64,000 nucleotides of DNA from Pyrinomonadaceae bacterium (GCA_036389095.1 DASVQM010000072.1:25718-89717), one strand, 5' to 3'. Shown: positions 3,729 to 26,824, counted from the first letter of the stretch. A program made the numbers and translations. Notes: generated by a model from the sequence alone, not told the origin.

Positions 3729-3774
3729 TGATGGGTAATCATATTTTTCCGGGTGGGTTATCCTTATTTTTCCG
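3729..3774 (+). repeat. left-end array: two tandem 23-bp units (putative transposase binding sites)
   Basis: TGATGGGTAATCATATTTTTCCG and GGTGGGTTATCCTTATTTTTCCG match at 16/23. They match the reverse complement of the right-end units at 14-16/23, ungapped and in phase. Confidence 0.65.
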
Positions 3775-3913
3775 CTTTGGCGGGATCCCCGGACATTTAT
3801 AGATTTCCACCTATTTCCATAGATGGATAAACCATTTTTAACATAGCATACTGGCAATGATTTACAAAGAAATTTTTGTGGTTTTATATAACCCGAAACT
3901 TAGCCGTGTGGAA

Positions 3914-4415
3914 TCACACGTTAGACTTCGCTTCCCCGACTTTTAGATCACGTAATAATCGATCAAATGAACGCTGGTAATGATCATAATCTTTCCATTG
4001 AGTAAAGTCCCCTATGTGGCGCGTCCTACGAATAAACGCAGGCCAGCCTGAATCAATCTCCATCACTGCATCATCAAGCCGGATTGGATACAGTACTATC
4101 CGCTCGCTACTTCGCTCTCTTTCGAATGCAGTTTCCGCCTCCTTTTCTACCCAACTGCTTGCAATTGAGTTTTCCGAAAGAACTAACAACAGCCAAGTGG
4201 GAGATTCCTGAGTTGCCTTTAGGCTCCCATTTGGCAAGTTTGTGTCTGTGGTAGCGCTTACCTCCGATGTAGTAGAGGTGGATTGGGCTGCGATCTCGTT
4301 GGAGGGATGTTCTGTATGTTTTTCTATACTCATCGAATGAAAGCGAAAGTTCGTATTTGAATACTTCCACGGGTTTAAGCGTAGCCATTAATGATAAGTA
4401 GAATAAGATAACCAT
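3914..4415 (-). pseudogene. degenerate TIR-like domain gene (frameshifted, central part replaced by a Ser/Thr-rich stretch)
   Basis: The C-terminal half WLLLVLSENSIASSWVEKEAETAFERE...IVLYPIRLDD is typical of TIR betaC-alphaC-betaD. A betaA-like KYELSLSFDE lies in another frame starting at ATG 4415, which abuts the upstream stop codon. The two frames switch near 4335. Confidence 0.4.
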
Positions 4416-5120
4416 TCATTTGCTTGATTTCTGTGCAATAGAAGTTATTTTTGAGAAAAGTTTATATTGGGTTGAAAAGCCATTCCCTTCTGCGCTCGTC
4501 CATCGCAACTCCGGATGGTGCGCCAAGTATTCTTCATAACTTTTCCGCTCCTGCATCACTTTCTTTCTTTCTTTTGCTGTCATCTCCTCCGTCAGAATCT
4601 TTTCACAGAGGACGGGCATCAGAACGCACAGCGGGTCTCCGTATTGAAAAGTGATGGTTTCTTTTGGGCGAGGACAAGTGAAAACAAGAAATAAAGGTTT
4701 TGGATACCACCATGTTTCTACTAAACCATTAACCAAATGTGCCTTAGATTGATATTCTGCCGGAAGCGATTGTGTGTAAATTCCTATTCCCGGTTCAGTT
4801 CTTATGAGGTAGTTTGTTGCCAGACCGAAATGTCTCAATGAAAACATCGAAACAATGCTCTTATCGGCTCGCTGACCTATCATGCTTTTTATGCTGAATT
4901 CCGGAATATCATTTTTTCGTCCGGTGATGGTGAGATGAACTCGATGAGGGAACAGCATCAACAGCCCGTAAGATTGCGCATCGATCCAAGGTTTGCAATG
5001 AATCGGTAGCGCCGGTGGCTTCGGCAATTTCGCAAGCCGTCGCTCGCCCTCAGAAATTTGAGGTTTAATAGGCATCAGCTGAGGGGCAGCCTCGTCAAGC
5101 TTAATGTATTTTATTTTCAT
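4416..5120 (-). CDS. hypothetical protein (234 aa; CKPWIDAQSYG motif, possibly DUF6065-like from memory)
   Basis: Clean ORF tightly packed between the neighbouring genes (4-nt gap upstream, its stop abuts the next ATG). Confidence 0.6.
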   Translation of the reverse strand: MKIKYIKLDEAAPQLMPIKPQISEGERRLAKLPKPPALPIHCKPWIDAQSYGLLMLFPHRVHLTITGRKNDIPEFSIKSMIGQRADKSIVSMFSLRHFGLATNYLIRTEPGIGIYTQSLPAEYQSKAHLVNGLVETWWYPKPLFLVFTCPRPKETITFQYGDPLCVLMPVLCEKILTEEMTAKERKKVMQERKSYEEYLAHHPELRWTSAEGNGFSTQYKLFSKITSIAQKSSK

Positions 5121-5124
5121 GACA

Positions 5125-6081
5125 CTAAGCTTTAGTAGCTACTGCAAGAGTCTGGTAGCAGGTGAATGTGGAAAAATTTTGTTGCAACTCGTCCACCGCC
5201 GGCTTAACGTCCGGCCAATTGCTGTTCCCGTAGTCATGAAATGCTACGATTCCACCTTTGACAAGTTTTGGAAACCAAGCATGAAAATCACCCACGATGC
5301 CATCATAAGAATGGTCGGCATCAATAAAGAGCATGCTGATTTTGCTTTTATACTTATCTGCCGCTTGCACTGTGTCTTGAACCAATACCTTCACTTGCCG
5401 CGAGAGTTTGGCCTTTTTAAGATTCTTTTTGAATCGTGGGAGGGATGTAGGAATAGTTCGGGCAAGCTCCGGTGGAAAAGAACCTGCTGCGATATGTTGA
5501 TGCCATTCGTGGTCGTCAACGGCCAACACTCGATTTTTATTCTTGCTCTTGAGCGTGCCTAATGCCAGAGCAATGGTTGACCCGCCGAACATGCTGCCAA
5601 GCTCGCAGATCGGTTCCTTAAAGTTGTTCTCTCTAGCCAGCAAGTAGAGGATTAGACATTCAAGCTCTAGCAGTCCGAGATCATCCACATTGATGGTATC
5701 GCGCAGTTGCATTATCTCTTCTAGTGTTAGTCTTATCTTCCTGCCGTTTAGAGCATATCCTGTGCTGAGAAGCATGCCCGGTTCAATAAGCCTGCGTAAA
5801 ATTTCACACTGGACGGTTTGCTCGTTGCTCTTATTTGATAGTTTAGCTCGCGCCCCCGCGCCAAATTGAGTTAGCAAGCGGAAAGCGTCGTCGCTAAGCA
5901 ACAGACCATAATTGGCCGGCGCATCAGCCCTGAAGTGAACAAACCAATCGGTATTAGTTCTTTTGATTCTTATGTCTCGTGAGAGGATTAACGCAGACCT
6001 TAAGCTTCGGTCGATGTCTATAGGCTTGTCCATCATAATATTTAGGTAGCTGTACTCAACCGCTAATAAAGGTGGCTGCAT
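5125..6081 (-). CDS. class I SAM-dependent methyltransferase (Methyltransf_24-like C-terminal domain) with a ~150-aa N-terminal extension
   Basis: ELGSMFGGSTIALALG (motif I-like) and LFIDADHSYDGIVGDFHAWFPKLVKGGIVAFHDY. The N-terminal part (WFVHF...LLLSDDAFRLLTQF...ILRRLIEPGMLL) faintly resembles a PqqD-type small domain. Confidence 0.65.
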   Translation of the reverse strand: MQPPLLAVEYSYLNIMMDKPIDIDRSLRSALILSRDIRIKRTNTDWFVHFRADAPANYGLLLSDDAFRLLTQFGAGARAKLSNKSNEQTVQCEILRRLIEPGMLLSTGYALNGRKIRLTLEEIMQLRDTINVDDLGLLELECLILYLLARENNFKEPICELGSMFGGSTIALALGTLKSKNKNRVLAVDDHEWHQHIAAGSFPPELARTIPTSLPRFKKNLKKAKLSRQVKVLVQDTVQAADKYKSKISMLFIDADHSYDGIVGDFHAWFPKLVKGGIVAFHDYGNSNWPDVKPAVDELQQNFSTFTCYQTLAVATKA

Positions 6082-6199
6082 CGCCTGAGCCCGACGATGG
6101 GATAATTCACGCAGTCGTAATGAACTTACTTACTGGATAGTCATGCAGAGAGAAGCGGGCTGCCGCTACAGCCCGCTTCTTGAATTAAGCTGCTCCGGT

Positions 6200-6547
6200 T
6201 TACTTGCCCTTGGATGGATGTCTATAGACTATGATCAGGGCAAGCTTTTCATCGGGGAAGACAAATAGAGCTTTACAGGTCGGGCCAGCAACAGAAGACG
6301 GCACATCAGTGTTCACCACAGTCGTTTGAATTCTATAGTCCTCTTTAATGAGCCCTTCTCGGAGTAGATGCGTCTTCGGGTCGGCGAGGAATTTCAGAGA
6401 TTCCGCCGCAGTCATCTCAGTGAAATACTGCGTCCATGTTTCTTCGCGCAGTTCTTTTATGTGTTGGCTGACATTCGTCCACCTGCTTTTCCTTGTCGCT
6501 TTCTTCGCTGCTTTTTTGGCAGGTTTACTTGATTTACGAGTTACCAT
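6200..6547 (-). CDS. small basic protein (Lys/Ala-rich N-terminus KSSKPAKKAAKKATRKSR), function unknown
   Basis: ATG 6547 has AGGAGA about 6 nt upstream. The ORF-track start at 6577 is 10 codons longer. Confidence 0.5.
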   Translation of the reverse strand: MVTRKSSKPAKKAAKKATRKSRWTNVSQHIKELREETWTQYFTEMTAAESLKFLADPKTHLLREGLIKEDYRIQTTVVNTDVPSSVAGPTCKALFVFPDEKLALIIVYRHPSKGK

Positions 6548-6989
6548 GAGGTTTCTCCTTTCGGATTGTGAGATCAATAGGAAGTAGCAACTCCGGATGG
6601 GAAGTCGCCATTTTACAGAAACTGCGATTCATAAGGCAGAGGCAATTTATCCGCAGAAGGTTAGGTTGTCAATACTTATGAAAATGATGCACTTTGTAGG
6701 ATTAAAACAAAAACCTACAGCATACTGATATAACTTATCCTCAAGAACAGATTCTTGGGCAAGCCCCTGCTTCTTCAATGATAGAATCTAGGGATTGACA
6801 TTCTCCTGTTATAGGAATACCTTGCCGCACATCAAGGGTTTTCTCACGTTGACAAGGGCTTACCGTTTTGAGACTTGCTTTACATGACTTACAAGATAGA
6901 GCGGGTGTAAAATGTATCCCGGAACTGCTCGACAAGCTGTTCTTATTTGACTTTTGATAGACCATAGGAAGTCCCCCCACCCTAATAGT

Positions 6990-9302
6990 ATGAAGGGTTC
7001 AGCTACATTTTCTGAAGATCAAGGCTTATCTGCTGAAGTCCTGTCTAAGCTTCAATCTCTAGTTAATTTAATCAGGGGGGAGTGCGCTATAAATGATCTG
7101 TCCGGCCTCATTATGGAGCATCTCATAGATTTATTTAGTCCCGACATTTCCTGTTTTTATATCAGAGACTACAGTACGCAGGACTATCTCAGGGCAGCCG
7201 AATATCCTAATACCTTTTGGCAAAGACAAGACATTCAAGAGAGATTCGATAAAAGACCTAATACGGGCGGAGCGATTGGAAAAGCCATAAGAGAAAAGAC
7301 GGTGGTCTTTATCCAAGACCCTGCGGAAGCCGAATTAAGGGGGGAATATGTTCCTTTTGATCCAGATATAGAAAACGAAATAGTGGTCCCAATTTTAGCT
7401 CAGAGAAGCTTTAGCACTGAGGAAAGTGTTTTTGCTTTGATTATACTGAGTAGGCGGTCCGGAAGAGAGTTTACTCCCGAAGAGCGTCAACTTATTAACA
7501 TTGTTAGTAGTATTATAAATACTATTTATAATAGTTGCTTAGCTAAAGAAGCTAAAGAAAAACGAATTCGGTTCCTTGCGAGTATTACTGAATTACAAAA
7601 TCTCGATTTTGACGTTCTGTTCCAAAACTTCCTTGTCGCCTTATCAGATCTGGTGCATTCGAGATTTACTTCACTCTGGTTATACAACGAGCTAGATGAC
7701 ACGCTCGTTATTAGGTCTTTCTATCCATCAATGCTCAGTGACAAAGAGGTGAGTTTTGAATCTTTTGATAATAGGGTCTTGAAATGCTCCGAGTGCCTGA
7801 GCGGCGAAGTCATTAATTCTAAACAACCCAAAGTTTTCACTCTTATAGATTCAAGCGACAAGTTTAGCAATCCATCGTTCGCTGAAAGGCATGGAATTGA
7901 ATGGTTTATTTCAGTACCAATTCTCGATAAGGATAAAAAGCCTCTAGGCGTAGTCAATATTAGTCCTATTGGCGATGCTCAAGAATTCGGTGAGGCCGCT
8001 CTGGAAACTCTTCTTAGTTATATTTCGCCTATATCGAATGCTATCCGGCTTACATCATTGCTCTTTGAAGAAGATCTACTTTTTTCCTATGACGTTTTTT
8101 TCAAAATAATGCTCGAATTTCGGGATGAACAAGAAAGTTGGGATAAGCTGGCAAGGCTTGTTAGAGATCGAATGAAGTGCGCCGGATGCTCCATCTTTTT
8201 AGCGGAGGCTGATGGTCAGCTACATCTTAAAGGAACAACTGGTTTGATAGGGAATCCCTCATATAAAAAGGTTGTCTATGAACCCGGCAAAGGTCTAACG
8301 GGCACTGCTTTTATAAAAGACACCCCTCTTATCTATTACTCAGAAGCCAATGAGCAATACTTTGGTATACATATTAGTAAGTTCAGAGAATTTACTCCCG
8401 GTAGAAGTAAATCCATTATCTTCGTGCAAATCTTGAATAGAGAAGATCACCCTATCGGAGTGATTCGATGTAATAACAAAGAAGAGACGCCTTCTAGGCA
8501 TATTGGCCGATTTACCAATGAAGACGTTTTTCAGCTACAAAAGATCGCGAAAGTAATTTCGAGCGTGCATTCAAAAATTTCGTGGATTAAGGAAAGAGAG
8601 AAGGAGAGGAATAGTCGCGCAAATAGCCTACACCATGAACTCTTATCTCCTCTAGAAGGTATAACTCAGCATATTGAGTGGCTGGAGTACCACTTTGATA
8701 TTTGGAGATCACAAGATGAGTGGGACAAAGATCGAGTGCTTCTAAAGCTAAAGGACATGAAGCAAAACAGTAAGTTGATCGATGTGGTTGTAACCTCCTT
8801 GGGTCGGTTCGATGAGATACGTTTGAAATTGCGTGATATAAATCTCTCTCATTTTCTCGAAACGTGCAAGGGGTTCATACTCAACGAAGCTAACCGCAAG
8901 GACATTAAAATTAACATCGATCCAATGTATGTGAGAAAGGTTAGAGGCGATGAGACTCAACTCATGAGGGTCTTCTATAATCTTCTAAGGAACGCTGTAA
9001 AGTACTCAGATCCAAAAGAGCCTCATAAATTCATTAAAATTTCTATCACCTCAAATGAGCGAGATCATTTCGTTCTTTCTTTCTCAGATAATGGAATTGG
9101 CATCATTGCAGGCGAGGAAGAAAAAATCTTCCAGATCTATGAGAGAGGATCCAATGCCGCTCAGTACTTCCCCGAAGGAACAGGACTTGGATTGGCGTAT
9201 TGTAGAAGCATAATGGAGAAGCACGGGGGACGAATCACGATAGATCCTAAAAGCTCGTCTAAACCGACGGTTTTTCATCTCAGGTTCCCAAAACTTATGT
9301 GA
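6990..9302 (+). CDS. multi-GAF sensor histidine kinase
   Basis: H-box SLHHELLSPLEGI, N box NLLRNAVKYS, G boxes DNGIGI and GTGLGLAYCRSIMEKHGGRI. The ~550-aa N-terminal region contains GAF-like repeats and no clear TM segment. Confidence 0.8.
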   Translation: MKGSATFSEDQGLSAEVLSKLQSLVNLIRGECAINDLSGLIMEHLIDLFSPDISCFYIRDYSTQDYLRAAEYPNTFWQRQDIQERFDKRPNTGGAIGKAIREKTVVFIQDPAEAELRGEYVPFDPDIENEIVVPILAQRSFSTEESVFALIILSRRSGREFTPEERQLINIVSSIINTIYNSCLAKEAKEKRIRFLASITELQNLDFDVLFQNFLVALSDLVHSRFTSLWLYNELDDTLVIRSFYPSMLSDKEVSFESFDNRVLKCSECLSGEVINSKQPKVFTLIDSSDKFSNPSFAERHGIEWFISVPILDKDKKPLGVVNISPIGDAQEFGEAALETLLSYISPISNAIRLTSLLFEEDLLFSYDVFFKIMLEFRDEQESWDKLARLVRDRMKCAGCSIFLAEADGQLHLKGTTGLIGNPSYKKVVYEPGKGLTGTAFIKDTPLIYYSEANEQYFGIHISKFREFTPGRSKSIIFVQILNREDHPIGVIRCNNKEETPSRHIGRFTNEDVFQLQKIAKVISSVHSKISWIKEREKERNSRANSLHHELLSPLEGITQHIEWLEYHFDIWRSQDEWDKDRVLLKLKDMKQNSKLIDVVVTSLGRFDEIRLKLRDINLSHFLETCKGFILNEANRKDIKINIDPMYVRKVRGDETQLMRVFYNLLRNAVKYSDPKEPHKFIKISITSNERDHFVLSFSDNGIGIIAGEEEKIFQIYERGSNAAQYFPEGTGLGLAYCRSIMEKHGGRITIDPKSSSKPTVFHLRFPKLM

Positions 9303-9309
9303 GGGTGAC

Positions 9310-9717
9310 ATGAAAACAGTTCTTTACGTCGATGATGAAGCAGATACCGAAAAAATGTCTTCGAAGTTTGAGTTAATGAAGGCTGAAGGAATTACGGTCA
9401 TTCCCGCCACAAGAATTAAAATGGCACTCGATGAACTTGAAATGCGACGTGCCTCCATTGATTTGGTAATACTCGACATCATTATGCCCCCGGAAGATTA
9501 TTATAGTTTGGAAGATACGGAGGGGGGGACAACAACAGGGCTTAAACTACTAGAAGAGATTAGGCGAAAGTACTCGGACCTCCCAATCATAATAGTAAGT
9601 GTTCGAAGATCGCCGGGGGTACAGAAGTTTGAGGCGATGTATAATGTTGCTGATTTCCTAGAAAAACCGGTTTCGGCTTTTACTTTGGCTGCTGCAATTA
9701 AGAGGATTACTAATTAG
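9310..9717 (+). CDS. stand-alone response-regulator receiver domain protein
   Basis: VLYVDDEAD, the phospho-acceptor context LVILDIIMP, and PIIIVSV...K. There is no output domain. It starts 8 nt after the kinase stop. Confidence 0.8.
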   Translation: MKTVLYVDDEADTEKMSSKFELMKAEGITVIPATRIKMALDELEMRRASIDLVILDIIMPPEDYYSLEDTEGGTTTGLKLLEEIRRKYSDLPIIIVSVRRSPGVQKFEAMYNVADFLEKPVSAFTLAAAIKRITN

Positions 9718-9865
9718 GTGATAAAACATATATATCATATTCTTTGAAGGTCCGTCCGGCAACGAAACTGCTAATCTTTCAAATTATACGTAGCGCGATG
9801 ATCTAAAATAAGTTTTGATGCTCGTTTAATTCAATTCAGCGTCTAGCTCCTTACCGGCTACTCGT

Positions 9866-10300
9866 ATGGAACATTTAATCTCCCTTATTCGCTACCTAAT
9901 GGAGTATTACTCTGTCCCCGTCATTGGGCTGACTTATATACTCATAAAAATTTTAGTCAAATTTTATATCTATAAAGCCATTGAACACGAGTTCGACTTT
10001 TGGGATGTTCTTGCATGGTTCAGTCTAGATATTATGCTGCTCTCTTTATCTGTTTGTGTTGCCTTAGATGTTCCTTCACAGAAATGGAACCTTAAACCTA
10101 TAGCGTCTTACTTCTTCTATATTATTTTCGTTGTCTTTTGCATCACTAATGGTTTCTGTTACCTTTACTTTACAAAAAGGAGAGACCAACTTGAAAAGAT
10201 TCCTCCGATCAAGGACTTGAAATTGGCCTCCCTTCTGAGTGTTAGTTGGGCTATAGGGTTTTATTGGTTTTGGGGAATTTTTGACGCTCTGAAACAGTAA
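9866..10300 (+). CDS. integral membrane protein (about 4 TM helices), unknown function
   Basis: The hydrophobic segment pattern runs throughout the ORF. Confidence 0.5.
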   Translation: MEHLISLIRYLMEYYSVPVIGLTYILIKILVKFYIYKAIEHEFDFWDVLAWFSLDIMLLSLSVCVALDVPSQKWNLKPIASYFFYIIFVVFCITNGFCYLYFTKRRDQLEKIPPIKDLKLASLLSVSWAIGFYWFWGIFDALKQ

Positions 10301-10315
10301 TTCGGAATTTGGGAA

Positions 10316-10969
10316 ATGGATGATTCATTCAAAATTCTAAAGAAGCTATTTCTCGAACACTACATAGAATTAGTAGTGTTGGCGATAAGTTGGATCTTTA
10401 TTTATTACATTCTTAAGTGCTTAGATCTTCTTGCCCGAAAAATCTTGCTCAGATTACCTTTTTATTTGGAAATTCGGTTGAGGAGAATAATGATTGGGGC
10501 GAGCGCTCAACGTAATAAAATGGTAGCCGGGAAAATGTTAAGCGCAGAGAAGAGATTGCAACTATTCTTGGAAATCGAAAGGCTTCACATCTCTATCGAT
10601 GAAAAGATCTCAAAGATTAAGAGCGGACAACATTGGGTGACGAAAATACTACGACCAGAAAGTATCGAAGATGAATTACAAGAGATAAAAACTAAAGATT
10701 GGGCACTACTGGAGTCCGATTATGCTCTTTGTGAAGCTATTTCCACCAGTGATTTTAGCGCAAGAGGGCTTCGACATTTTATTGGAAACCCTCGGCCTCA
10801 ACCTGCTGAAAAATACGGTCTGCTCATACATAGCGTAAGATTCGGCCCGGAATATACACAGGTGTTAGCCCGGTATTTTATCGATAATGTTTATAAGTTA
10901 GATCAATTAAGGGCATTAAGAAGCCTTGCCTCTCAAAGTAAACAGGAAACCAGTGAGATACATAAATAG
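10316..10969 (+). CDS. hypothetical protein with one N-terminal TM helix
   Basis: ORF starting 16 nt after the previous gene. It has the segment IELVVLAISWIFIYYIL followed by a soluble charged domain. Confidence 0.5.
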   Translation: MDDSFKILKKLFLEHYIELVVLAISWIFIYYILKCLDLLARKILLRLPFYLEIRLRRIMIGASAQRNKMVAGKMLSAEKRLQLFLEIERLHISIDEKISKIKSGQHWVTKILRPESIEDELQEIKTKDWALLESDYALCEAISTSDFSARGLRHFIGNPRPQPAEKYGLLIHSVRFGPEYTQVLARYFIDNVYKLDQLRALRSLASQSKQETSEIHK

Positions 10970-11332: not shown

Positions 11333-13405
11333 TTACATCGCCCACCATGAAATCTCGACCTGTTCAAGAGCAGCGGTCGCGAAATTCCGCACCCTTTCAT
11401 TTGGATCATCTTTGCTGCGTCTGCAAAGCAATTCTCTTATCTTTTCAACGCCGGCGAAGCCGCAAGCCCATAATGCTGCTTCGCGCACTGCCGGATTATT
11501 ATCCTCAACCGCCACCTGTCGCAGGCACTTATTGCCTTCTACACACTGGAGAAAAGCAAGGCAAGCCACGGCTGTTAAACGCGCTTCATAATTCCTTAGC
11601 TCCAGAGCAGGGAAGATGAACCGCGTATCCCGGAGCCAGCCGAGTTGACTGTCAGCCAGCATGGCCTGCAAACAGCATTCATGTCCGCCCCACTTCTTCG
11701 CCGCGTACAGCAGCGCGTCAGTCCGGTCGAACAGGAATTCGGCAGCTAAATGCGGATCTTTTGCAAATCTATTCTGATAGTTGGGATTCGGAATGCGGCG
11801 GATCTCGCCGTATAAAAGCCTGATAAGCTGGTTAGGATCAGTAATATCTTGTGCCAGCGGGTAAAACGGCATTATCACTGGCAGAAGCTCTTCGGCTGTC
11901 CACGCCGCAACGTCTTTTGATACTTCCGATGGAAGATCAAGACCTTTTGATTCTCGCGAGCTAAGCCATTCACGCGTTCTATTGAGGATTCCTTCAACCC
12001 GATCACGAAGCTCCTCCGCATCCCGCCGAGTTGCCGCATCGCCGTACTCACCATTAAGAAGTTGGTCAAGCCCTTGCAATGCATCTTGCGCATCTGCCGC
12101 GATCATTATCGCTCTGCCGATTGCGACTGATGGCAACGCGCAGCCTTCGAGGGCGCATAATTGCTCCTCGGCATTGGCCTCCAGCCAGCGGGATTCAATC
12201 TGGTGCAGACACACAAAGGCGTGGGCATCTCTTACCCCATCAGCGGAATGGTAATAGTATGCGTCGCCATTCACCCTACCCACTTGGTAGACCCGTTGGA
12301 GGACACGCTCATGCCGAGTGCCGTCCCCTCCGTCAATCAGTTCCTTAGAAGCATCCGAGATGATTTGAAAAAGGCTGGATGAGCCGACAGGGTGAAGTGT
12401 ATCGTCCATCTTTATCTCGCTTGATACATCTCTTTGCGTAACCGGCCTGCCGAGCCGCTCGACTGCGCGACGGACGGCTTCACCAATGCGCTCCGCATCA
12501 TTGGCATAAGCATCAATGATGTCGAGCACTTCATCAGGCACATCGCACGGTGCCCAAAGCGACGCATTTTGCCCCGGCCTCTTAATCTTGCGTATCGCCG
12601 CAGCATCGGTTTGGGAAAGCTGGATCATCGCATTGACGAGCAGTTTAGGATTCTTCAAGTTTTCGTGTGGTTGTGGGTCGGAGAGGAGCCGAGTGCGGAC
12701 TTCACCTGTTGAGATGGGTCTAGGCAGGCGATTTTCGGCAGCAGCTTGCCTCAAGTTCTCATTCCACAACTCTCTAAAGGCGTACAGAACTTGATCCAGC
12801 CATGTCAGCGCCTCCGTGGGCATATACTGAGTTGAGTCAAGATCGGAAGGAAGGTATAAATTAGTGCCCTGATTGTCTTTGCGCAGAGGATTGCCTACGA
12901 CTTTTAACTCGCCGGTATCTTTGAGGCTAAGCACGTCATGAGTAATTTCCGCCTCGGACAAGTCAAGTGTTTCCGGGTGTTCGGCTACATACTTCAACAC
13001 GTCATTAACGCGCACGGCACGGTTTAGCAGTGCCACCGTGTCCCTTACTAATTCAAGCACTCGCTGCCTTCGCGACATCTTCGTAGGAAGGTCTCTCGAC
13101 TCCGGGGCGAGAGCATTTACGGAGCCGTAGTAGCGGTTTGCGCCTATTCTACCGGGCGAGAACACAACCTTCCTTACACAGAGCTGATTTAGAACGCTGG
13201 CGACAGTTTGGCTTAAATTCTTGCTGTAGGCCTTTTTAATCCGCTCAATATCTTTCTCCGAAAGAGACAGCGCGGCGATTACTTCGCTGACAGTCGCAAC
13301 TCTAGAGTAAGCGATGTTAGCCACCTCAAGCGCCCGGAGCACGAGCTTGTGCTCGGCTTTAAGCCTTTGGTCAGATTTAGTTGATAGTCTTCTTATCTTC
13401 TCCAT
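11333..13405 (-). CDS. 690-aa transposon-encoded protein: about four winged-helix-like modules plus C-terminal HEAT-like repeats (candidate target selector; not TniQ/TnsD-like by eye)
   Basis: It is the third gene of the tnsB-tnsC operon, 8 nt after the tnsC stop. Repeated HTH-plus-wing-like modules each end in an aromatic hairpin (..GANRYYG, ..GTNLYLP, ..NASLWAP, ..GDAYYYH). The C-terminus has NPAVREAALWACG and DPNERVRNFATAAL, which are HEAT/PBS-lyase-like. No N-terminal Cys/His zinc motif is present. Confidence 0.6.
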   Translation of the reverse strand: MEKIRRLSTKSDQRLKAEHKLVLRALEVANIAYSRVATVSEVIAALSLSEKDIERIKKAYSKNLSQTVASVLNQLCVRKVVFSPGRIGANRYYGSVNALAPESRDLPTKMSRRQRVLELVRDTVALLNRAVRVNDVLKYVAEHPETLDLSEAEITHDVLSLKDTGELKVVGNPLRKDNQGTNLYLPSDLDSTQYMPTEALTWLDQVLYAFRELWNENLRQAAAENRLPRPISTGEVRTRLLSDPQPHENLKNPKLLVNAMIQLSQTDAAAIRKIKRPGQNASLWAPCDVPDEVLDIIDAYANDAERIGEAVRRAVERLGRPVTQRDVSSEIKMDDTLHPVGSSSLFQIISDASKELIDGGDGTRHERVLQRVYQVGRVNGDAYYYHSADGVRDAHAFVCLHQIESRWLEANAEEQLCALEGCALPSVAIGRAIMIAADAQDALQGLDQLLNGEYGDAATRRDAEELRDRVEGILNRTREWLSSRESKGLDLPSEVSKDVAAWTAEELLPVIMPFYPLAQDITDPNQLIRLLYGEIRRIPNPNYQNRFAKDPHLAAEFLFDRTDALLYAAKKWGGHECCLQAMLADSQLGWLRDTRFIFPALELRNYEARLTAVACLAFLQCVEGNKCLRQVAVEDNNPAVREAALWACGFAGVEKIRELLCRRSKDDPNERVRNFATAALEQVEISWWAM

Positions 13406-17428: not shown

Positions 17429-17653
17429 ATGAAATCAGACTTGAGTGGCAAATACGAACAGTTTCAACGCTTGTTGATTCAAGCTAGAGAAGATGCCGGA
17501 TTGTCTCAGCAGGATGTGGCCGACCGTTTGGGCCGCCATCAGACCTACGTGTCTAAATGCGAACGTGGGGAGCGACGCATGGATCTGATTGAATTTCTTG
17601 AGATTGCACGGGCTGTTGGGTTCGACCCGCACAAATTCATAAAAAAGCTTTAG
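17429..17653 (+). CDS. XRE/Cro-CI family helix-turn-helix transcriptional regulator (74 aa)
   Basis: LSQQDVADRLGRHQTYVSKCERGERRMDLIEFLEIARAV. Confidence 0.8.
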   Translation: MKSDLSGKYEQFQRLLIQAREDAGLSQQDVADRLGRHQTYVSKCERGERRMDLIEFLEIARAVGFDPHKFIKKL

Positions 17654-17708
17654 GACATGGTGCTTCATTCATCGGTGGAGGTTCCCGCTGCCGAATTTGC
17701 TTAAATAG

Positions 17709-18990: not shown

Positions 18991-19040
18991 CTAAATACAA
19001 CTGTATTTAGCAGCCATATATTAAATACAGTTGTATTTAG
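18991..19040. promoter_or_regulatory. two 20-bp palindromic operator-like sites spaced 30 bp apart, upstream of the 111-aa XRE gene
   Basis: CTAAATACAACTGTATTTAG (18991-19010) and TTAAATACAGTTGTATTTAG (19021-19040). Confidence 0.6.
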
Positions 19041-19091
19041 ATGCAAGGGCGGCTGGAAGATTTTTAATCCATCAGGAGGAAAGCTTTCCTG

Positions 19092-19427
19092 ATGAGACGA
19101 ACTTCCAGACAGCGTCCGGCTCGACTTGCCGAGAAACTTTTGTATATCCGCGCCACGCTAGGTCTTTCACAGAATGAGATGATCCGACGGTTGGGATTTG
19201 AAAATGAACTCACACAAGGCCATATTTCAGCTTATGAAAGGCAGAAGGAGAATCGCATACCACCGCCCGGCATTTTGCTAGCCTACGCGCGCGCGATCTC
19301 GACCACAGGTGGAGGCGAGTTTCTGGAAGCTTTGATTGATGATGAAATGGAATTACCTAATTTGTTTCCAGCTAGTCCTAGTAAAGTTATTAAGACTAAA
19401 CATCCTGCTGGAACTAAAAAATGTTAA
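19092..19427 (+). CDS. XRE-family helix-turn-helix regulator (111 aa)
   Basis: LGLSQNEMIRRLGFENELTQGHISAYERQKENRIPPPGILLAYARAI. Confidence 0.75.
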   Translation: MRRTSRQRPARLAEKLLYIRATLGLSQNEMIRRLGFENELTQGHISAYERQKENRIPPPGILLAYARAISTTGGGEFLEALIDDEMELPNLFPASPSKVIKTKHPAGTKKC

Positions 19428-20661: not shown

Positions 20662-23199
20662 TTAACCATTCTCTGCTAGCAGTATGTCTAATTCCGACTG
20701 GTAACTTTCTATTCGCCCTTCACGCAAATACTGAAAGTATGTGATGAAATTAGACGGCGTTAAAAAATTGAATTTATACCTTAATGAACTGCCTGCTTCT
20801 TCCAAATGTTTATTGACACGCTGGAAGTGAGCGAGCGCGTACTCATTCTTCTTTCTGTTTTCCTCAGAAGGCTCTGTAAGCTCTTCGTTGCCTTTTACTT
20901 CCAAGACAAGGATTAAGTTATCAGCTTTAATGAAGAAATCAGGACTAAACATTCCACGCTTTGGGTGTTCACCTTTCTTCCAAGAGTATGCGATTTCATA
21001 AAATCGTGAGGCGGTTGATTTGATCCAAGCAGAAAAATGCGGCATATTCGCCGGCTCAAGTAGCATTTTGATGAAACGCCTTTCAGGATCTGAGTCCGCA
21101 ATCACTCCACTCAGAGGCGTCTTAAAGTCATACTGGTTAAGAACGCGCATGCGCTTAAACCCGCTGTCTTCTTCAGCGATCTCGTCAAAGAATTCTATTT
21201 GTTCGTCTTTCAAGTAATTACGGGTCTGTTCGGTATAGAAGAAGTACTTATCGCGCCGTAGATCAGCTGCACTAACGCTACCAGACTGCCGCTGGAGCGT
21301 CGGCACCTCAACAAAACGGTTTTCAATGGGCGTATAACGGACATTCTCAGAAGTCCTGCGCCTCAAAGTACCGAGCGACTGAAGGAATTTCTGTTTAACT
21401 TTATCTGTCGCTGCCGACATCTTTCGCCGGCTTAGTGATTCTTTAACGATTTGTTCCAAGCGTTCGACCGGAAACTGCTTGGTATAGGATGCGCTAAACG
21501 CGCCTTCCGAATCGGCTAGATCTTCTTCGGCCTCTTCCAGACGACGGTACATCTCAGCGGCGATCTCGCGCGGACTGTAGGTTCTGTGCTGTACTCTAGT
21601 TTGCCAACTGTAGCGATCACCAGTTAGAGCGCGCTCAAACTCGACATTGACATCTTCGGCATCGACGTCGGCGGCCAGTTCTATATAACCTTTAGAAAAG
21701 AACTTGTATTCGCCTTCCATAGGTTTTTTCACCGAAGTCGGCTCAAGAGTGTAATCTATGTTGTGTAAAACGAAGTGGTATGGCGAGTCTTCGATGACGC
21801 GCACTGAGAGTCTTTTTTCGATTTCGAGGATGTCGTTAACCAAATGCCTGATCCGAGGTGCCCATGCGTCATGGTTGAAAACTACCACTTCAGGTTGAGG
21901 GCCGTTCCAACTATCAGGCACGCGCAAGCCTCGTCCCAACACTTGAGCAATTAACAGCTTGCTATTGAAGGCGCGTTCCTCATGCGGCACAATCTGAAAG
22001 ACGCGTTTTACATCCCAACCCTCGTTAAGCATTGATACGGAGACGATCCACTCCACGTTGTTATTAGCACTATCTAGGAGCGGTAGTTTGTTAACATCTG
22101 GAGCATTGTTATAAACCGTCAGCACGCGCTCGTCGGCTGTCTCAGGATCGATCATTTCTTTCTCAATCAAGAAAGCTTTCAATTCCTCAGCAACGTCTTT
22201 GCAGCGAGTGATTTTCTGCGTGATGATGAGTGTTAATGGAGTAATGTTGCGCTGTCTCAGCTTGCGCTTGAACTCCTCGTGACGGTTATGAATCAACTGC
22301 CATTTTTCTTCCGTCGGGTCGCCGCCTGTTTGCGGCATCTCGGCTATGTAATCCACCCTTTTGACATACCGCTCTTCCATCGCCTGCCGAAGGGAATAAC
22401 GGTAGATCACATCGGCGAAGTATTCGTCCTCCACATAACAAGTTCCGGAGACGCCTAGAACGTAATAGAAGCCGTAGTTGGGATCTACTAAGAATTCTTT
22501 CCACTTCTTGACTTGAGTGGCGGGGCCATTGGAAACGTGGTGAGCTTCGTCATTAAGTATGACGGTTCGAGCGCCCCTGCCCAAAAGGCTGTCCCGAATA
22601 GAGGAGCCGACATGCTCTAAGACCGCATGATAGTTTTCAACGCAAATGCTGCCCTCCGTGATAAACGAGTTAGCATTGATGATGCGCGGTGATGAGAGCT
22701 TTGTATCGGCTGGCAACAGGTCACGTAGGCCGGCGTCTCCCGCTAACCTTTCGAACTTATCCATTAGGCCGTACTCGATAGTCGTGGAGGGGACTAACAC
22801 GAGCACACGGTCGACTACACCTTCGGCTAAAAGGATCGCAGCGATGCCGTAAAGAACATAGCTTTTGCCAGTGCCGGTAGCGAGATCGAGTGAAGCGGAG
22901 AGTTGATTAGGCAACTGTAGGTGGCGCTGCATCCCATCCCACGAACCATAACGATGCTCAAGGACCGAGTTCTGTTCGTAATTAGCCTTAGCAAGGTCTC
23001 TAAGATTTTTATATTCGCCGCCGAGTAAATATCGGAGGGCCGTGCGGATGGCATCTTTCTGATACTCACGGTCGCCGCAAAGCTCATCTATGAAGGCTTC
23101 ATAGCGGCTCTCATCCCAACGGGTTCTATCTACTGCGGTTCCAACTTTAAGAGTTAGATCTTCGTTGCGGAAGCGTTGACGGTCAGGGCTGCTTGGCAT
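20662..23199 (-). CDS. res: type III restriction-modification system restriction subunit (Res; SF2 helicase plus PD-(D/E)xK nuclease)
   Basis: Helicase motif I LATGTGKSYV and motif II LNDEAHHV. The C-terminal nuclease motif is SPDFFIK...LVLEVKG. It starts 8 nt after the mod stop. Confidence 0.85.
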   Translation of the reverse strand: MPSSPDRQRFRNEDLTLKVGTAVDRTRWDESRYEAFIDELCGDREYQKDAIRTALRYLLGGEYKNLRDLAKANYEQNSVLEHRYGSWDGMQRHLQLPNQLSASLDLATGTGKSYVLYGIAAILLAEGVVDRVLVLVPSTTIEYGLMDKFERLAGDAGLRDLLPADTKLSSPRIINANSFITEGSICVENYHAVLEHVGSSIRDSLLGRGARTVILNDEAHHVSNGPATQVKKWKEFLVDPNYGFYYVLGVSGTCYVEDEYFADVIYRYSLRQAMEERYVKRVDYIAEMPQTGGDPTEEKWQLIHNRHEEFKRKLRQRNITPLTLIITQKITRCKDVAEELKAFLIEKEMIDPETADERVLTVYNNAPDVNKLPLLDSANNNVEWIVSVSMLNEGWDVKRVFQIVPHEERAFNSKLLIAQVLGRGLRVPDSWNGPQPEVVVFNHDAWAPRIRHLVNDILEIEKRLSVRVIEDSPYHFVLHNIDYTLEPTSVKKPMEGEYKFFSKGYIELAADVDAEDVNVEFERALTGDRYSWQTRVQHRTYSPREIAAEMYRRLEEAEEDLADSEGAFSASYTKQFPVERLEQIVKESLSRRKMSAATDKVKQKFLQSLGTLRRRTSENVRYTPIENRFVEVPTLQRQSGSVSAADLRRDKYFFYTEQTRNYLKDEQIEFFDEIAEEDSGFKRMRVLNQYDFKTPLSGVIADSDPERRFIKMLLEPANMPHFSAWIKSTASRFYEIAYSWKKGEHPKRGMFSPDFFIKADNLILVLEVKGNEELTEPSEENRKKNEYALAHFQRVNKHLEEAGSSLRYKFNFLTPSNFITYFQYLREGRIESYQSELDILLAENG

Positions 23200-23206
23200 G
23201 AACCTT

Positions 23207-25279
23207 TTATACTACCTCAACTTCTTCAATAACTTGCTTATCACTCACAAGACTAAACTTTTCGCGAGGAATAACTTCCCGCGCTTCGTTGCCGTGAATG
23301 TCTATAAAGACAGCCATCAGTTTTTCACCTATAGCCTCAGCGGGGAAATGCGCTTCCCAATTCTGATCTTCAAGCTGGCTGGCAAAGTAAACGGCGTCAT
23401 GATTGAAAACATCTCCCTCGTAACTGTAGTCAAGCATGAGCATTGAAAGTGTTTCCAACCCCCCGTAAGTATCCTCACCTTTCAGACGAGCATAACTCTG
23501 AAACTTTTTGACTTTAATGAAAGCTCCTTCGAACAATTGGCCCTTCCTCGACCTCGTCCCGATGGACCACTCCACTTTAGGTGGTCTAATGAAATCAAAC
23601 CCATGGGAATCTACGATCTGGTTGATGCTACGCTCGTCGTTAGGCTGCTGAAGCGCAGTGAATTTGCGGCTGTGCAGTTCATTAATGAATGAGTAGGGGA
23701 TGCGCAGAGCGTAGTAGCGCACGCCATCGAGGTCAATGTAGTCCTGCTGGAAATCGAAAACGCCACGCGGGGCGATGATGTAAAACTTACGCCCGATCTT
23801 ATCGCCCACAGCGGCGTGGATGCTTTGCACGGTCTCCTCATCGACGCGCCTATTCGGATTTTCCAGATGGTTGAATACCAGTACGCTTGCCCCTTTGAGT
23901 TTCCCATCAAGCTTCAACCCGCCGACGATGTGTTGTTCCTCCCTACAGCCGAACAGTTGCAGCGCAAAGAAGCGCCACTCCGACCACTGGAGATGCTTGA
24001 GCGTTGAGAAGTCATACAGGCCGGCGTTATAGAGAATAAATGGCTTGTGCGCAATAGGCGTCCCCTTATTGCCGATCTCCTTGCGGAGCGTAAGCATGCG
24101 CTTCTGCATGGTATAAATTGCCAACTTCCCGGAGTCGATGCCGATCCAGCGGCGACCGAGCTTTTCAGCTACAGCGAGGGCGGTTCCGGAACCGGCGAAG
24201 GCGTCAAGCACAATATCCCCTTCATTAGAGGAAGTTCGGACGACTCGCTCTAGGAGTTCTTCCGCGTTCTCCGTCGGGTATCTTGCGCTGAGGACATACC
24301 CACGCAGGTCAGTCCAATCACTATCTACTACGGAGTCCTCTGTCTGAAGGAACTCCGGTAGACCCTTAACTCGATTTCCATGTATATCCGTATAGCTGGT
24401 TTTTTCATTTATGCGTATTCGACCCTGACGCTCCATAATGTCAATGTTGCTCTGCGTATATTTCCAATGCTGAGTTCGAGGCGGGTAGAGTAGCCGACCG
24501 AGAATAACGCGCTCAGGAGGGTTTCGCAGACCGGACGATACCATGTGATGCCATTCGGGATCCTTCTCCTGACCACAGAATGAGCAGAGCCGAGACCTCT
24601 TTTGTTCATTAAATAGCGGCTTGCCTGAGCGACTATAGAAGAACAGACAGTCTGTCGAGACGTTGAATTTATTAAGACCGCTCAGTTGTCTCTTGAAACG
24701 ATTGATGACGATTTCATTTTGAAAGTTTTCGAGGCCGAACACTTCATCCATGATGACCTTGATGTAGTGCCCAAAGTGATAATCAAGACGGACGTAAATA
24801 CTCCCGTTGCTAGCCAGTAGTTCGCGCATCAGGACGAGCCGTTTGCGCAAGAATTCCATGAAGCGGGCACCTTGTATCTTGGCAGTGTAGGCGAACTCAC
24901 CATCGCGCGGACCATACTGATCACCTGTGCCGAATGGAGGATCAATATAGATTAGCCGGACGCCGGGCGTGCCATCAGAGTTACACAACGTCCCCTCAGC
25001 CTTTAGTTCTATCAGTTTTTTAATAACCTGTAAGTTGTCACCAAAAATTAGTTTGTTGTGCCAGCCATCGCCATTATTACCAAATGTGCGAACCGGCTGA
25101 AGAGGAACGGCCATAGTGTTAGCCAAAATATCCTCTTTCCACTGCTTACCATGGTAAAGCAGTTCGTACTCCTGCCGCTCAGGCGGAAAAAGCAGTTGCT
25201 GGTAATCTGGAGGCAGATCTTCACCCGTTTGGAGCAATTTAATTATGTGTAACCGCTGCTGATCAGTTAATTGTGCCAT
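23207..25279 (-). CDS. mod: type III R-M DNA methyltransferase (Mod; beta-class N6A/N4C MTase)
   Basis: Motif IV IYIDPPFGTG precedes motif I VLDAFAGSGTALAVAEKLGRRWIGID. ATG 25279 (MAQLTDQQ) is preferred over the track start at 25318. Confidence 0.85.
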   Translation of the reverse strand: MAQLTDQQRLHIIKLLQTGEDLPPDYQQLLFPPERQEYELLYHGKQWKEDILANTMAVPLQPVRTFGNNGDGWHNKLIFGDNLQVIKKLIELKAEGTLCNSDGTPGVRLIYIDPPFGTGDQYGPRDGEFAYTAKIQGARFMEFLRKRLVLMRELLASNGSIYVRLDYHFGHYIKVIMDEVFGLENFQNEIVINRFKRQLSGLNKFNVSTDCLFFYSRSGKPLFNEQKRSRLCSFCGQEKDPEWHHMVSSGLRNPPERVILGRLLYPPRTQHWKYTQSNIDIMERQGRIRINEKTSYTDIHGNRVKGLPEFLQTEDSVVDSDWTDLRGYVLSARYPTENAEELLERVVRTSSNEGDIVLDAFAGSGTALAVAEKLGRRWIGIDSGKLAIYTMQKRMLTLRKEIGNKGTPIAHKPFILYNAGLYDFSTLKHLQWSEWRFFALQLFGCREEQHIVGGLKLDGKLKGASVLVFNHLENPNRRVDEETVQSIHAAVGDKIGRKFYIIAPRGVFDFQQDYIDLDGVRYYALRIPYSFINELHSRKFTALQQPNDERSINQIVDSHGFDFIRPPKVEWSIGTRSRKGQLFEGAFIKVKKFQSYARLKGEDTYGGLETLSMLMLDYSYEGDVFNHDAVYFASQLEDQNWEAHFPAEAIGEKLMAVFIDIHGNEAREVIPREKFSLVSDKQVIEEVEVV

Positions 25280-25290
25280 GATTAATTCAG

Positions 25291-26034
25291 TTATAAGGAT
25301 GCTGCCCAATCCTGCCATGGCAGGAACTGATAGTTTGTCGGGAAAGTTCCTTGATGCATTTGTCTTGCGGTCTTCAGGTCTAAGGGAATAGCGAATACAT
25401 TCGCATCGGTCAGGATTCGTGGACTGTCCCTGCTTTCCACATTCATGAACACAAGCTGTAAATCGAACCCTTCTAATTCGGCGACCTGAGCCAGCAAACT
25501 AAATTGGTGCGCCCCTCTTGCAGCCGCGCGTTTTTCGATGAACTTACGCACGAGAGTTCTGGCGGTCGCCTCAGTTTTCATCGGGATAAAGAAGGTAGAA
25601 GTCTCAAGACCCTTATATTGGTTTTCACTGACTTTCCACGCATAGTCTATGTCGGTAGTATTGAATCTCTGATTAGTCTTGCTTGTAATATAATCGTAAG
25701 TAGAAAAGAATTTAGGGTCTATAACCATGGCTCCCGGAGGGTCAGGCCATGCCTCGTTTTTTAGCGATTCTACCTCCCGCTCTTCACTAAGGTAATTGAT
25801 GAAATATTCTGGAAGCTGACCCTGCTGAAAGAAAGGTTTGTTTATAGTTTGATTTGTGCTGTCCTTACTATTGACTTCGAAAGAGAGCCAAAGTGGCTTC
25901 ATAGGATTAGTCCGATACCAGATCACCGGCCAGCAAACATTTGAGCTTCCATACCGGTCAGTAAGTAGTTGAATAAGTTCCGCACATTTAACCGTAGTCA
26001 TCGCCGGATAGGTGGGTCCCGGTTGCCGTGACAT
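25291..26034 (-). CDS. hypothetical protein (247 aa), first gene of the mod-res transcription unit
   Basis: Its stop lies 11 nt upstream of the preferred mod start. No recognisable motif. Confidence 0.5.
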   Translation of the reverse strand: MSRQPGPTYPAMTTVKCAELIQLLTDRYGSSNVCWPVIWYRTNPMKPLWLSFEVNSKDSTNQTINKPFFQQGQLPEYFINYLSEEREVESLKNEAWPDPPGAMVIDPKFFSTYDYITSKTNQRFNTTDIDYAWKVSENQYKGLETSTFFIPMKTEATARTLVRKFIEKRAAARGAHQFSLLAQVAELEGFDLQLVFMNVESRDSPRILTDANVFAIPLDLKTARQMHQGTFPTNYQFLPWQDWAASL

Positions 26035-26146
26035 GAGTTATCAATCCTTTCTTTGACTAACCAAACGCCCCCGTTCATCATCTTCCGCTCTGATGGCGAA
26101 CGATCAGCAGCAAAAGCAATGTCATATTTAACTTGCTCTTGATAAC

Positions 26147-26234
26147 AAAATGAAACGCACTTGTCAAAGAAATGAAACACACCGGGCGAAAGAAATGAAA
26201 CGCACTTGCTGAAAGAAATGGAACATACTTGGCT
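26147..26234. repeat. four contiguous 22-23-bp direct repeats (consensus AAAGAAATGRAACRCACTTG), with a fifth copy at 26349-26365
   Basis: The ATGAAAC/ATGGAAC cores start at 26150, 26172, 26195, 26218 and 26352, all in the same orientation. Confidence 0.85.
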
Positions 26235-26508
26235 AAGTAGAGCAAAAAGGGATTTGAGCAGCCGGACAAGATTATCTGGCTGCTTATGATTGATCGGAAG
26301 TAGAGTACTCATCTTAATTCTGCTCCCATAGTTACAAAGAGATAGATGGAAATGGAACGCACTTTATTAAAGGGCAGTGAACTGAACTTCATTAGTAGAT
26401 TTGGAGTGAGCCAAACCATCTACCTTGTTTGGTTACCTGATCTGCGCCATTACATGTCTTTAGTTATGATTAAACTTAACATTTCAGAATACTTACTCCC
26501 AGTTTTCG

Positions 26509-26530
26509 GTAGAATGGTTGTTGCTGTGTA
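26509..26530. repeat. 22-bp direct repeat GTAGAATGGTTGTTGCTGTGTA, copy 1 (copy 2 at 26610-26631)
   Basis: Exact 22-mer present twice, 101 bp apart. Confidence 0.85.
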
Positions 26531-26716
26531 TGCCCTATGATTTACCCTTTCCCGTCTTGTAAACACTTCTTTCTTTTGAGCTTAAAGCTATTGCGCCTGA
26601 TCTGGCTTAGTAGAATGGTTGTTGCTGTGTACGACCCTTCAAAGCACAGATAACAGTCTGATTGGCCTTTGTCTGATTCGGAATAGACTGATCCATCAAA
26701 TTCCACTTAAACAATT

Positions 26717-26756
26717 GACGCCCGTAAATCCTTAGTTCTTAAGGAGTACGGGCGTC
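26717..26756 (-). terminator. strong compound hairpin just inside the right-end repeats (possible terminator for read-through from pilC)
   Basis: GACGCCCGTA-aa-TCCTTA-gttct-TAAGGA-g-TACGGGCGTC. On the minus strand it is followed by CAATTGTTTAAG. Confidence 0.45.
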
Positions 26757-26824
26757 GGTAAATTACCAATACCTGAAACGGAAAAGTATCAGTAACCGAA
26801 ACGGTAAATTAACTTTACCTCGCA
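26756..26824 (-). repeat. right-end array: three tandem 23-bp units (putative transposase binding sites) ending in the CA tip
   Basis: CGGTAAATTACCAATACCTGAAA, CGGAAAAGTATCAGTAACCGAAA and CGGTAAATTAACTTTACCTCGCA are pairwise 17/23 identical. Confidence 0.7.

Follow-up and report, generated by a model that had tools for sequence, protein, structure and literature searches.

A TnsB/TnsC island at the 3' end of pilC

The stretch of DNA analysed here, called the window, comprises 64,000 nucleotides of a metagenome contig from a Pyrinomonadaceae bacterium (GCA_036389095.1, DASVQM010000072.1:25718-89717); all positions are coordinates of this whole stretch, and L-numbers (L003, L101 and so on) denote stretches fetched from related sequences. 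Between 3727 and 26826 it contains an island with CCTG...CAGG tips, which abuts the stop codon of the pilC gene and encodes a TnsB-type DDE transposase, a TnsC-type AAA+ regulator and a third protein that we term X. A TnsB/TnsC transposon with multi-repeat ends beside the pilC stop had been proposed in the initial annotation of this window; this is borne out by the profile matches of the two proteins (rve and Mu-transpos_C for TnsB, AAA_22 for TnsC) and by the recovery of the same end architecture at the same site in other genomes. On the strength of the sequence comparisons given below, we consider it highly probable that the island is a site-specific transposon that has remained intact and belongs to a hitherto undescribed family of Tn7-like elements in the Pyrinomonadaceae (Acidobacteriota). 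Its principal components and the adjoining gene are:

3727-3809, + strand: left end, a CCTG tip followed by three TnsB-site-like units with a spacing of 23 + 35 bp
11333-13405, - strand: gene for X, the candidate selector of 690 amino acids (aa), with four predicted winged-helix domains and C-terminal HEAT repeats
13414-14409, - strand: tnsC, AAA+ regulator (AAA_22, 8e-9; TniB, 5e-4, below the cutoff)
14384-16261, - strand: tnsB, DDE transposase (rve, 1.1e-8, and Mu-transpos_C, 6.1e-8, both above the Pfam cutoff)
16590-17237, - strand: PolB-exonuclease-like 3'-5' exonuclease (DNA_pol_B_exo2 / RNase_H_2), a frequent accessory gene
17429-17653, + strand: XRE-type helix-turn-helix (HTH) protein, divergent from the exonuclease gene
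26718-26755, - strand: hairpin lying inward of the third right-end unit
26756-26826, - strand: right end, adjoining pilC, with a CCTG tip (read on the - strand) and three contiguous 23-bp units
26830-28059, - strand: pilC (T2SSF, E 8e-68), whose stop codon (TCA) is at 26830-26832 and whose 3' end is the attachment site

The island is AT-rich, as the initial annotation had it, with a windowed G+C content of 38-55% against 59-66% in the right flank and 55-57% in the left flank. The same pilC gene and island recur on the JGI metagenome contig Ga0334931_000013 (255.9 kb), and an ENA assembly made independently has them too.

Architecture of the ends and the conserved tips

The two ends are asymmetric, with three contiguous units on the right and three spaced units on the left. 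Two left units (3729-3751, TGATGGGTAATCATATTTTTCCG; 3752-3774, GGTGGGTTATCCTTATTTTTCCG) and all three right units (26756-26778, 26779-26801 and 26802-26824) had been recognized before, and to these we add a weaker left unit at 3787-3809, 35 bp inward, the left spacing thus being 23 + 35 bp. In pairwise comparison the units are identical at 13-17 of 23 positions; the right units, when reverse-complemented, align in phase with those on the left at 13-16 of 23 positions, close to the 14-16 given earlier. A degenerate pattern for the unit has seven matches in the 64 kb as against 1.13 expected, a count reached in 0 of 100 shuffles, and with a weight matrix made of the five units first recognized, nothing but these units exceeds 24 bits, the runner-up in the 64 kb being at 14.4. 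Hence, the units are not a chance assemblage. Comparable spacing is seen in the left ends of relatives: 22/35 bp in L101, which has a ...GAGG tip, and 23/34 bp in L164.

Inward of the third right unit lies the hairpin at 26718-26755 (fold z = -4.1; no clear U-tract), which is not picked up by a simple terminator scan. Relatives have a hairpin followed by a T-run at the matching position; the window hairpin likely replaces the pilC terminator displaced by the insertion. Just inside the right end are two 27-bp direct repeats (26509-26535 and 26610-26636), 93% identical and 101 bp apart.

Left ends could be located for six elements, namely those of the window, L101, L164, L118, L112 and L111. Across the family the left tip is mostly ...NAGG and the right tip CCTN, the exceptions being a subfamily with CTAC...GTAG (L111 and L107) and L112 (...AAGGG). 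The fourth base of the tip varies, with CCTG, CCTT, CCTA and CCTC all found on the right and GAGG among the left tips. The TG...CA tips of the initial annotation sit 2 nt inside these conserved tips, and this variable base speaks against TG...CA as a family-wide terminus. Since the family tips are CCTN...NAGG with a variable fourth base, we take the window element to run from CCTG (3727) to CAGG (26826). No ends were found within ±10 kb for L003-L006, whose TnsB proteins are 87% and 82% identical to that of the window, nor left ends within 10 kb for L016, L018 and L106; the latter elements extend beyond the stretches searched. A left-end candidate in L105 was too weak and was left unused.

An 8-bp target-site duplication

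A 12-mer, CAGGGTCTCAGT, occurs at 3715-3726 and again at 26823-26834, as had been reported. A 12-mer common to two 60-nt junction windows arose in 4 of 20,000 shuffles, in keeping with the earlier estimate of about 1e-3 or lower. The duplication that had been read from it, of 10-12 bp, is to be shortened: based on the tip assignment and on the L164/L165 element described below, the window duplication is 8 bp, GTCTCAGT (ACTGAGAC when read in pilC orientation), and it overlaps the pilC stop codon. Its two copies are:

3719-3726, no strand assigned: left copy, GTCTCAGT
26827-26834, no strand assigned: right copy, which includes the pilC stop codon at 26830-26832

In pilC orientation the junctions accordingly read GGCC / ACTGAGAC / [CCTGCGAGG...CCCATCAGG] / ACTGAGAC / CCTGTCGCGCAAAA. 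The four extra bases of the 12-mer would then have separate origins, those on the right being the element's own CAGG and those on the left apparently the CCTG tip of an older relic at the site.

The second complete junction pair comes from L164 and L165, which lie on one contig and bound an element of about 51.8 kb. L165 reads ..GGC / CACTAAGC / CCTTGAGGGG and L164 reads ..CCGAGG / CACTAAGC / GTCAGG; the duplication CACTAAGC is exactly 8 bp, mismatched on both sides, and falls at the same pilC site as that of the window element. In addition, three left flanks open with the pilC stop region: L118 (CACTAAAC), L111 (ACTAAAC) and L101 (GCCACTAA). The 8-bp figure thus draws on two complete junction pairs and three one-sided junctions. 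A duplication of 5 bp, which has been called indicative of Tn7-like transposition (bioRxiv 10.1101/2025.07.27.667033), was considered and rejected, as any placement of it needs 3-5 flank-identical bases within the left tip in the window and L101; it fits neither TG/CA nor CCTG/CAGG tips. As judged from these junctions, the 8-bp duplication appears to be a genuine departure from the 5-bp rule.

Direct repeats of this kind could also be seen as the mark of an integrase-type island, in which the 12-bp repeat would be an att core and the 23-bp units the arm-type sites of a site-specific recombinase. No tyrosine or serine recombinase is encoded by any open reading frame (ORF) of at least 100 aa, and the only genes conserved across 24 family loci are tnsB, tnsC and the gene for X. 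Further, the inverted 3+3 arrays of units have a Tn7-style asymmetry and co-vary with the element subfamily, and the repeat varies by host, being exactly 8 bp in L164/L165. Set against these, such islands typically have direct repeats of 8-12 bp that extend over the 3' part of a conserved gene, and pseudo-copies of 26-33 nt of pilC lie within the islands of L165 and L074. On balance, we regard an integrase-type island as very improbable and proceed with the transposon.

The pilC 3' end is a recurrent attachment site

We surveyed pilC in close-relative loci and in 80 further metagenome loci, examining the sequence past the stop codon. About 70 pilC loci (81-89% PilC identity) are empty, with a native spacer and terminator only, and ten are occupied: the window, L007, L010, L013, L030, L061, L074, L106, L165 and L167. 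The occupied loci follow one design, in which a CCTN tip is followed by repeat units of about 20-23 bp, mostly three units and a hairpin. The hairpin follows the units in nine of the ten; L007 has two units and no obvious hairpin. The tip lies at +2 past the pilC stop in two loci, +3 in seven and +4 in one, and the orientation is the same throughout. The window element begins 3 nt after the stop, counted from its CCTG tip; its placement by the pilC stop had been correctly noted, the distance having been given as 5 nt. The occupied loci fall into several subfamilies by their unit sequences, and therefore represent independent elements rather than one inherited insertion. Insertion past pilC is accordingly a recurrent and not a one-off event. 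The C-terminus of PilC, MYLPLFTLIGKLSQGH, and its coding sequence are nearly invariant in occupied and empty loci alike.

In five cases tnsB and pilC are found co-oriented on one contig (the window, L010/L016, L013/L018, L164/L165 and L106), with tnsB lying between 2.9 kb (L106) and about 45 kb (L164/L165) from the pilC-side end. Given this range, the mid-element position of the tns operon in the window, 10.7 kb from the pilC side, is normal for the family, although it had been listed as unusual. In these relatives the homologous tnsB operon comes with related end units at the pilC site, and in L164/L165 also with the 8-bp duplication.

The transposition genes

In all 24 family loci that could be read, tnsB, tnsC and the gene for X are contiguous and in that order, and in the window their reading frames are full length. 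Other genes accompany this trio less regularly: the exonuclease gene is present in 11 of the 24 loci, either up- or downstream of the trio, and the HTH gene in six. Among solved structures TnsB matches that of the type V-K CRISPR-associated transposon (CAST) ShCAST (7svw, E 5e-22, over residues 125-585), followed by Tn6677 TnsB (8e-9) and Tn7 TnsB (0.0086), and its D255, D330 and E366 are invariant across 28 homologues. TnsC shows a TniB match of 20.0 bits relative to a cutoff of 22.4; a single-sequence search of PDB with it recovered no match, and its family profile recovers ShCAST TnsC (7m99) with E 2.2e-6. Both its Walker A (G60/G65/K66) and Walker B (D155/E156) residues are invariant.

Pfam and NCBIfam searches of ORFs of at least 100 aa found no TnsA, TniQ, resolvase, or tyrosine or serine integrase, as the initial annotation had observed, and no TnsA is conserved in the 24 loci. 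Likewise, no Cas12k is detected by Pfam or NCBIfam, with all large ORFs being assigned to other families. The repeat scan of the window showed no spaced-repeat (CRISPR-type) array, and Rfam (at gathering score) and tRNA scans of 1-30000 gave no match.

About 60 homologues of TnsB were found, the most distant at 39% identity, and practically all of them come from metagenomes of Pyrinomonadaceae or Acidobacteriota; in IMG/VR contigs there is no close relative, the best being 24% identical. Elements with 82-87% identical TnsB proteins carry wholly different cargo on both sides, as predicted for a mobile core with variable cargo.

Two variations on the core were seen in relatives. Directly after the selector gene, L003 (14983-15786), L108 (14718-15524) and L115 (14778-15590) have a second TnsC-like AAA+ paralogue, 37-44% identical to TnsC, which is not found in the window. 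Two contigs, DASVTR010000026.1 (L014, L109, L114) and DASVPO010000033.1 (L102, L103), each carry two co-oriented tnsB-tnsC-selector modules 38-51 kb apart; on DASVTR010000026.1 both modules are downstream of pilC. From their arrangement, the paired modules on the two contigs look like tandem elements at one attachment site.

X, a candidate selector with predicted winged-helix and HEAT domains

The only match of note for X in Pfam is HEAT_2, near the C-terminus, and there is none in NCBIfam. In a set of 1.84 billion proteins its family is represented by 218 clusters (E ≤ 1e-30); a tblastn search of PLSDB plasmids gave no match. A confident AlphaFold2 model computed with 49 homologues (mean pLDDT 87.4) predicts four helix-helix-helix-strand-strand modules, at about residues 17-95, 112-186, 202-286 and 303-385, taken to be winged-helix domains. 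After them come long helices (391-487), then a small fifth module, and finally the HEAT repeats (561-689). The leading Foldseek matches are RPC62 of RNA polymerase III (7d58_O, E 5.9e-5) and TFIIIC tauB, and then designed (alphaRep) HEAT proteins, with TM-scores that are low, as expected for a flexible multidomain chain. RPC62 itself consists of extended winged-helix domains in tandem. No TniQ or TnsD chain was matched by X, either with the model or with the sequence profile.

X probably serves as the attachment-site selector in place of TniQ/TnsD, because it occupies the TniQ slot in every locus, its modeled architecture could plausibly bind a long DNA site, and it is the sole conserved candidate for precise targeting. 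A divergent version bears on this proposal: the X of L107 shares only 36% identity and lies apart from the clade to which every pilC-linked element belongs. In this locus (732-1500) the right end is found 26 nt past the mglA stop, and an mglB-like gene, identified by reading the sequence, is directly upstream. The 3' side of mglA may hence be a second attachment site, used by a divergent selector clade.

Alternatively, X might have another role in a genuine transposon, such as that of a regulator, of an immunity or anti-defence factor, or of a scaffold, with targeting left to TnsB/TnsC, the HTH protein or a host factor. X has no detectable homology to TniQ, HEAT repeats most often serve in contacts between proteins, some loci have an XRE HTH gene close to the operon and the link between clade and target has n = 1. 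We consider such a role unlikely, since X is in the TniQ slot in 24 of 24 loci as against six for the HTH gene and 11 for the exonuclease gene, four tandem winged-helix domains (compare RPC62 and TFIIIC tauB) suit a long DNA site, and the precision of +2 to +4 and the orientation need a sequence reader for which there is no other conserved candidate.

A model for targeting by X

From the observed anatomy, recurrence at the site, 8-bp duplication, gene families and synteny, we infer a selector role and DNA binding for X and present-day activity of the element, which can be assembled into the following scheme. TnsB would bind three sites of about 23 bp per end, contiguous on the right and with 23/35-bp spacing on the left. 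X would bind the invariant 3' coding end of pilC (…MYLPLFTLIGKLSQGH*), the stretch of pilC 3' DNA of interest for this binding being ATGTACCTGCCGCTCTTCACCCTSATCGGCAAGCT, and TnsC, the AAA+ component, would bridge TnsB and the target-bound selector. Strand transfer would then take place 2-4 nt beyond the stop, with the right end toward pilC and an 8-bp duplication across the stop codon. The right-end hairpin would stand in for the displaced pilC terminator, and cargo (a type III restriction-modification system, a TIR protein, a two-component system and others) would be carried on both sides of the tns operon.

More broadly, with slightly less than even confidence, we propose that these elements form a TniQ-independent branch of the Tn7-like transposons. 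In it, a modular winged-helix/HEAT protein placed on a V-K-type TnsB/TnsC core would read the 3' end of a gene, with divergent versions redirecting insertion (to mglA in the L107 clade, as against pilC in the main clade). The transpososome would be altered, giving the 8-bp stagger and the CCT...AGG tips, and the subfamilies would diversify their end sites to pass the target immunity exerted by relics.

Several observations weigh against the scheme of a pilC-targeting transposon. With regard to the site, most relatives are empty, in line with the check suggested in the initial annotation, yet an exact search of JGI metagenome contigs for the predicted empty site (TGCGCGACAGGGTCTCAGTGGCCC) returned 0 matches, and the nearest island-free relative, L167 (97% PilC identity), holds a solo right-end relic instead of a naive site. 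With regard to the duplication, the window sequence alone cannot separate 8 bp from up to 12 bp; apart from the window, the sole exact end-to-end duplication is that of the 51.8-kb L164/L165 element, which is possibly tandem; and the left flank of L101 fits 8 bp only if its right junction is directly at the stop. Moreover, the combination of an 8-bp duplication and CCT...AGG tips differs from every characterised TnsB system, and without TnsA or a resolvase there is no evident route to resolve a replicative product. The missing U-tract of the window hairpin argues against its acting as a terminator, and the link between selector clade and target comes from one mglA case. Finally, what is said of X binding DNA or contacting TnsC, and of transposition as such, is deduced from sequence.

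Relationship to known systems

The element shares with Tn7-like transposons a TnsB-type DDE transposase, an AAA+ partner, asymmetric multi-repeat ends and site- and orientation-specific insertion, and departs from them in having neither TniQ nor a 5-bp duplication; TG/CA, too, does not appear to be conserved in the family. It appears to behave like a Tn7-like attachment-site transposon, and in its sequence to be closest to the TnsA-less V-K/Tn5053 branch. There are four systems with which it can be compared:

Type V-K CAST (ShCAST). This has the closest solved relatives of both TnsB and TnsC, and resembles the element in the absence of TnsA, the tnsB-tnsC-selector order, multiple TnsB sites per end and unidirectional insertion beside a recognised site. 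In contrast to it, the element has no Cas12k, CRISPR array, tracrRNA or TniQ; its target is presumably found by a protein rather than by a guide RNA; and its duplication is 8 bp, not 5 bp, with CCT...AGG tips.

Tn7 (TnsABC+D, with attTn7 downstream of glmS). The likeness lies in the single orientation, the fixed distance past a conserved gene that is left intact, the contiguous right and spaced left sites, the defence-rich cargo and the stacking at one attachment site. The element differs in lacking TnsA, TnsD/TniQ and TnsE, in the weak TnsB similarity (E 0.0086), and in a duplication of 8 bp as against 5 bp that overlaps the stop codon, the insertion point of Tn7 being about 25 bp beyond the stop.

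Tn5053/Tn402 (TniA, TniB, TniQ, TniR). These have in common with the element a TnsA-less three-gene module with a DDE transposase and an AAA+ protein, to which may be added the weak TniB match of TnsC. Unlike them, the element has no TniQ, TniR resolvase or res site; its target is the end of a chromosomal gene, not a plasmid res site; and its duplication is 8 bp versus 5 bp.

Tn6022-like elements. These provide a precedent for a Tn7-like core with an unrelated protein as selector: their TnsF, an inactivated tyrosine recombinase, directs them to comM, and they retain TnsA (Faure et al. 2023, PMC10293859). The candidate here is instead a winged-helix/HEAT protein, and the target is pilC. None of the terms HEAT, pil, exonuclease and Acidobacteria appears in that study. 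In the two large surveys of Tn7-like elements, pilC, HEAT and exonuclease go unmentioned, and one of the two counts only four Acidobacteria hosts; full-text literature searches turned up no publication that connects Tn7-like elements with pilC, a HEAT/winged-helix selector or an 8-bp duplication. Going by these comparisons, the attachment site, the candidate for a non-TniQ selector and the 8-bp duplication appear to be new.

Characterised Tn7-like systems find their targets via TniQ/TnsD, TnsE, TnsF or CRISPR effectors. If the proposal holds, a protein-only selector of a different fold on a compact, TnsA-less V-K-type core would be a new targeting solution, and such a three-protein system would allow one to ask how TnsC is recruited without TniQ. 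Confirmation of the 8-bp duplication would mean that TnsB-type transpososomes are not locked to the 5-bp stagger. The pilC 3' end is also a defence-island hot spot in an abundant, poorly studied soil phylum.

Older occupants of the site

Immediately to the left of the element are remnants of what was likely an earlier insertion:

3600-3718, - strand: older occupant of the site, with a CCTG tip relic and spacer (3703-3718), a TGT tip (3702), a repeat array (3638-3695) and a hairpin (3600-3635)

The array consists of three 20-bp copies of ACAATAAAGTYGGTARCT (three matches versus 0.06 expected), has its TGT tip 17 nt past the duplicated stop, and is followed by the hairpin, which has a perfect 18-bp stem. 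In L079 and L101 an array of the same type follows pilC, 17 nt and 14 nt past the stop, respectively. The repeats resemble Tn7 right-end sites, and the array looks like a solo relic, the right end of an element from another family with the same pilC target. That it might be the end of an intact canonical Tn7 was considered and discarded: in L101 it is succeeded by fragments of insertion sequences (IS) and by host genes, and tns genes are absent.

Solo or stacked right-end relics are also present in L007, L010, L074, L107 and L167, most of them keeping the hairpin; the relic in L167 (11233-11365) has host genes directly after it. The retention of hairpin-bearing relics suggests selection to keep pilC terminated, and one may speculate that the relic hairpin has become the pilC terminator and is retained for this reason. 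Perhaps there is also immunity against re-invasion; again speculatively, the transposase sites of the relics could confer target immunity.

Diverged pseudo-copies of the last 26-33 nt of pilC were noted 260-340 nt inside the islands of L165 (11491-11516) and L074 (11567-11599), each followed by another right-end tip (CCTTGAGGG / CCTGAGGGG). One possibility is that they arose by homology-facilitated illegitimate recombination.

The genes to the left of the island differ completely from those in relatives with 97% PilC identity, and positions 1-3700 of the window may therefore belong to an older island. Within this part is an ORF for an RsgA-type GTPase (2891-3646), whose match starts at profile position 36, the N-terminal part being apparently absent.

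These relics raise the question whether the island is a single transposition unit at all, or a decayed, composite and immobile one, produced by a recombination hot spot past pilC at which relics and cargo accumulate by homology-facilitated illegitimate recombination. The solo and stacked right ends, the pilC pseudo-copies, the patchy internal G+C content (38% to 55%) and the flank that differs among close relatives all fit such an origin. In the window, however, both ends are intact and cognate, with no further unit-like sites between them, the duplication is clean, tnsB, tnsC and the gene for X are full length with conserved catalytic residues, and the identical element is present in two independent assemblies. 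A composite island is, in our view, distinctly unlikely, and the single, intact transposon is the reading that we retain.

Cargo and internal repeats

The remaining genes of the element flank the tns operon on either side:

3914-10969, no strand assigned: cargo block with a TIR-domain protein, DUF6065, an S-adenosylmethionine (SAM) methyltransferase, a GAF histidine kinase and response regulator, and unknown genes
20662-25318, - strand: type III restriction-modification system, comprising Mod (23207-25318) and Res (20662-23199)

PADLOC names only the type III restriction-modification system among the cargo, and nothing in the block at 3914-10969. Upstream of a 247-aa ORF and the Mod-Res operon there are four tandem 23-bp repeats (GAAATGAAACGCACTTG...) at 26144-26250 with a fifth copy at 26349-26372, which may be operator sites and bear no relation to the end units. 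Upstream of an HTH gene at 19092-19427 there is a perfect inverted repeat of 19 nt (18991-19040, spacer of 12 nt), likely an operator as well.

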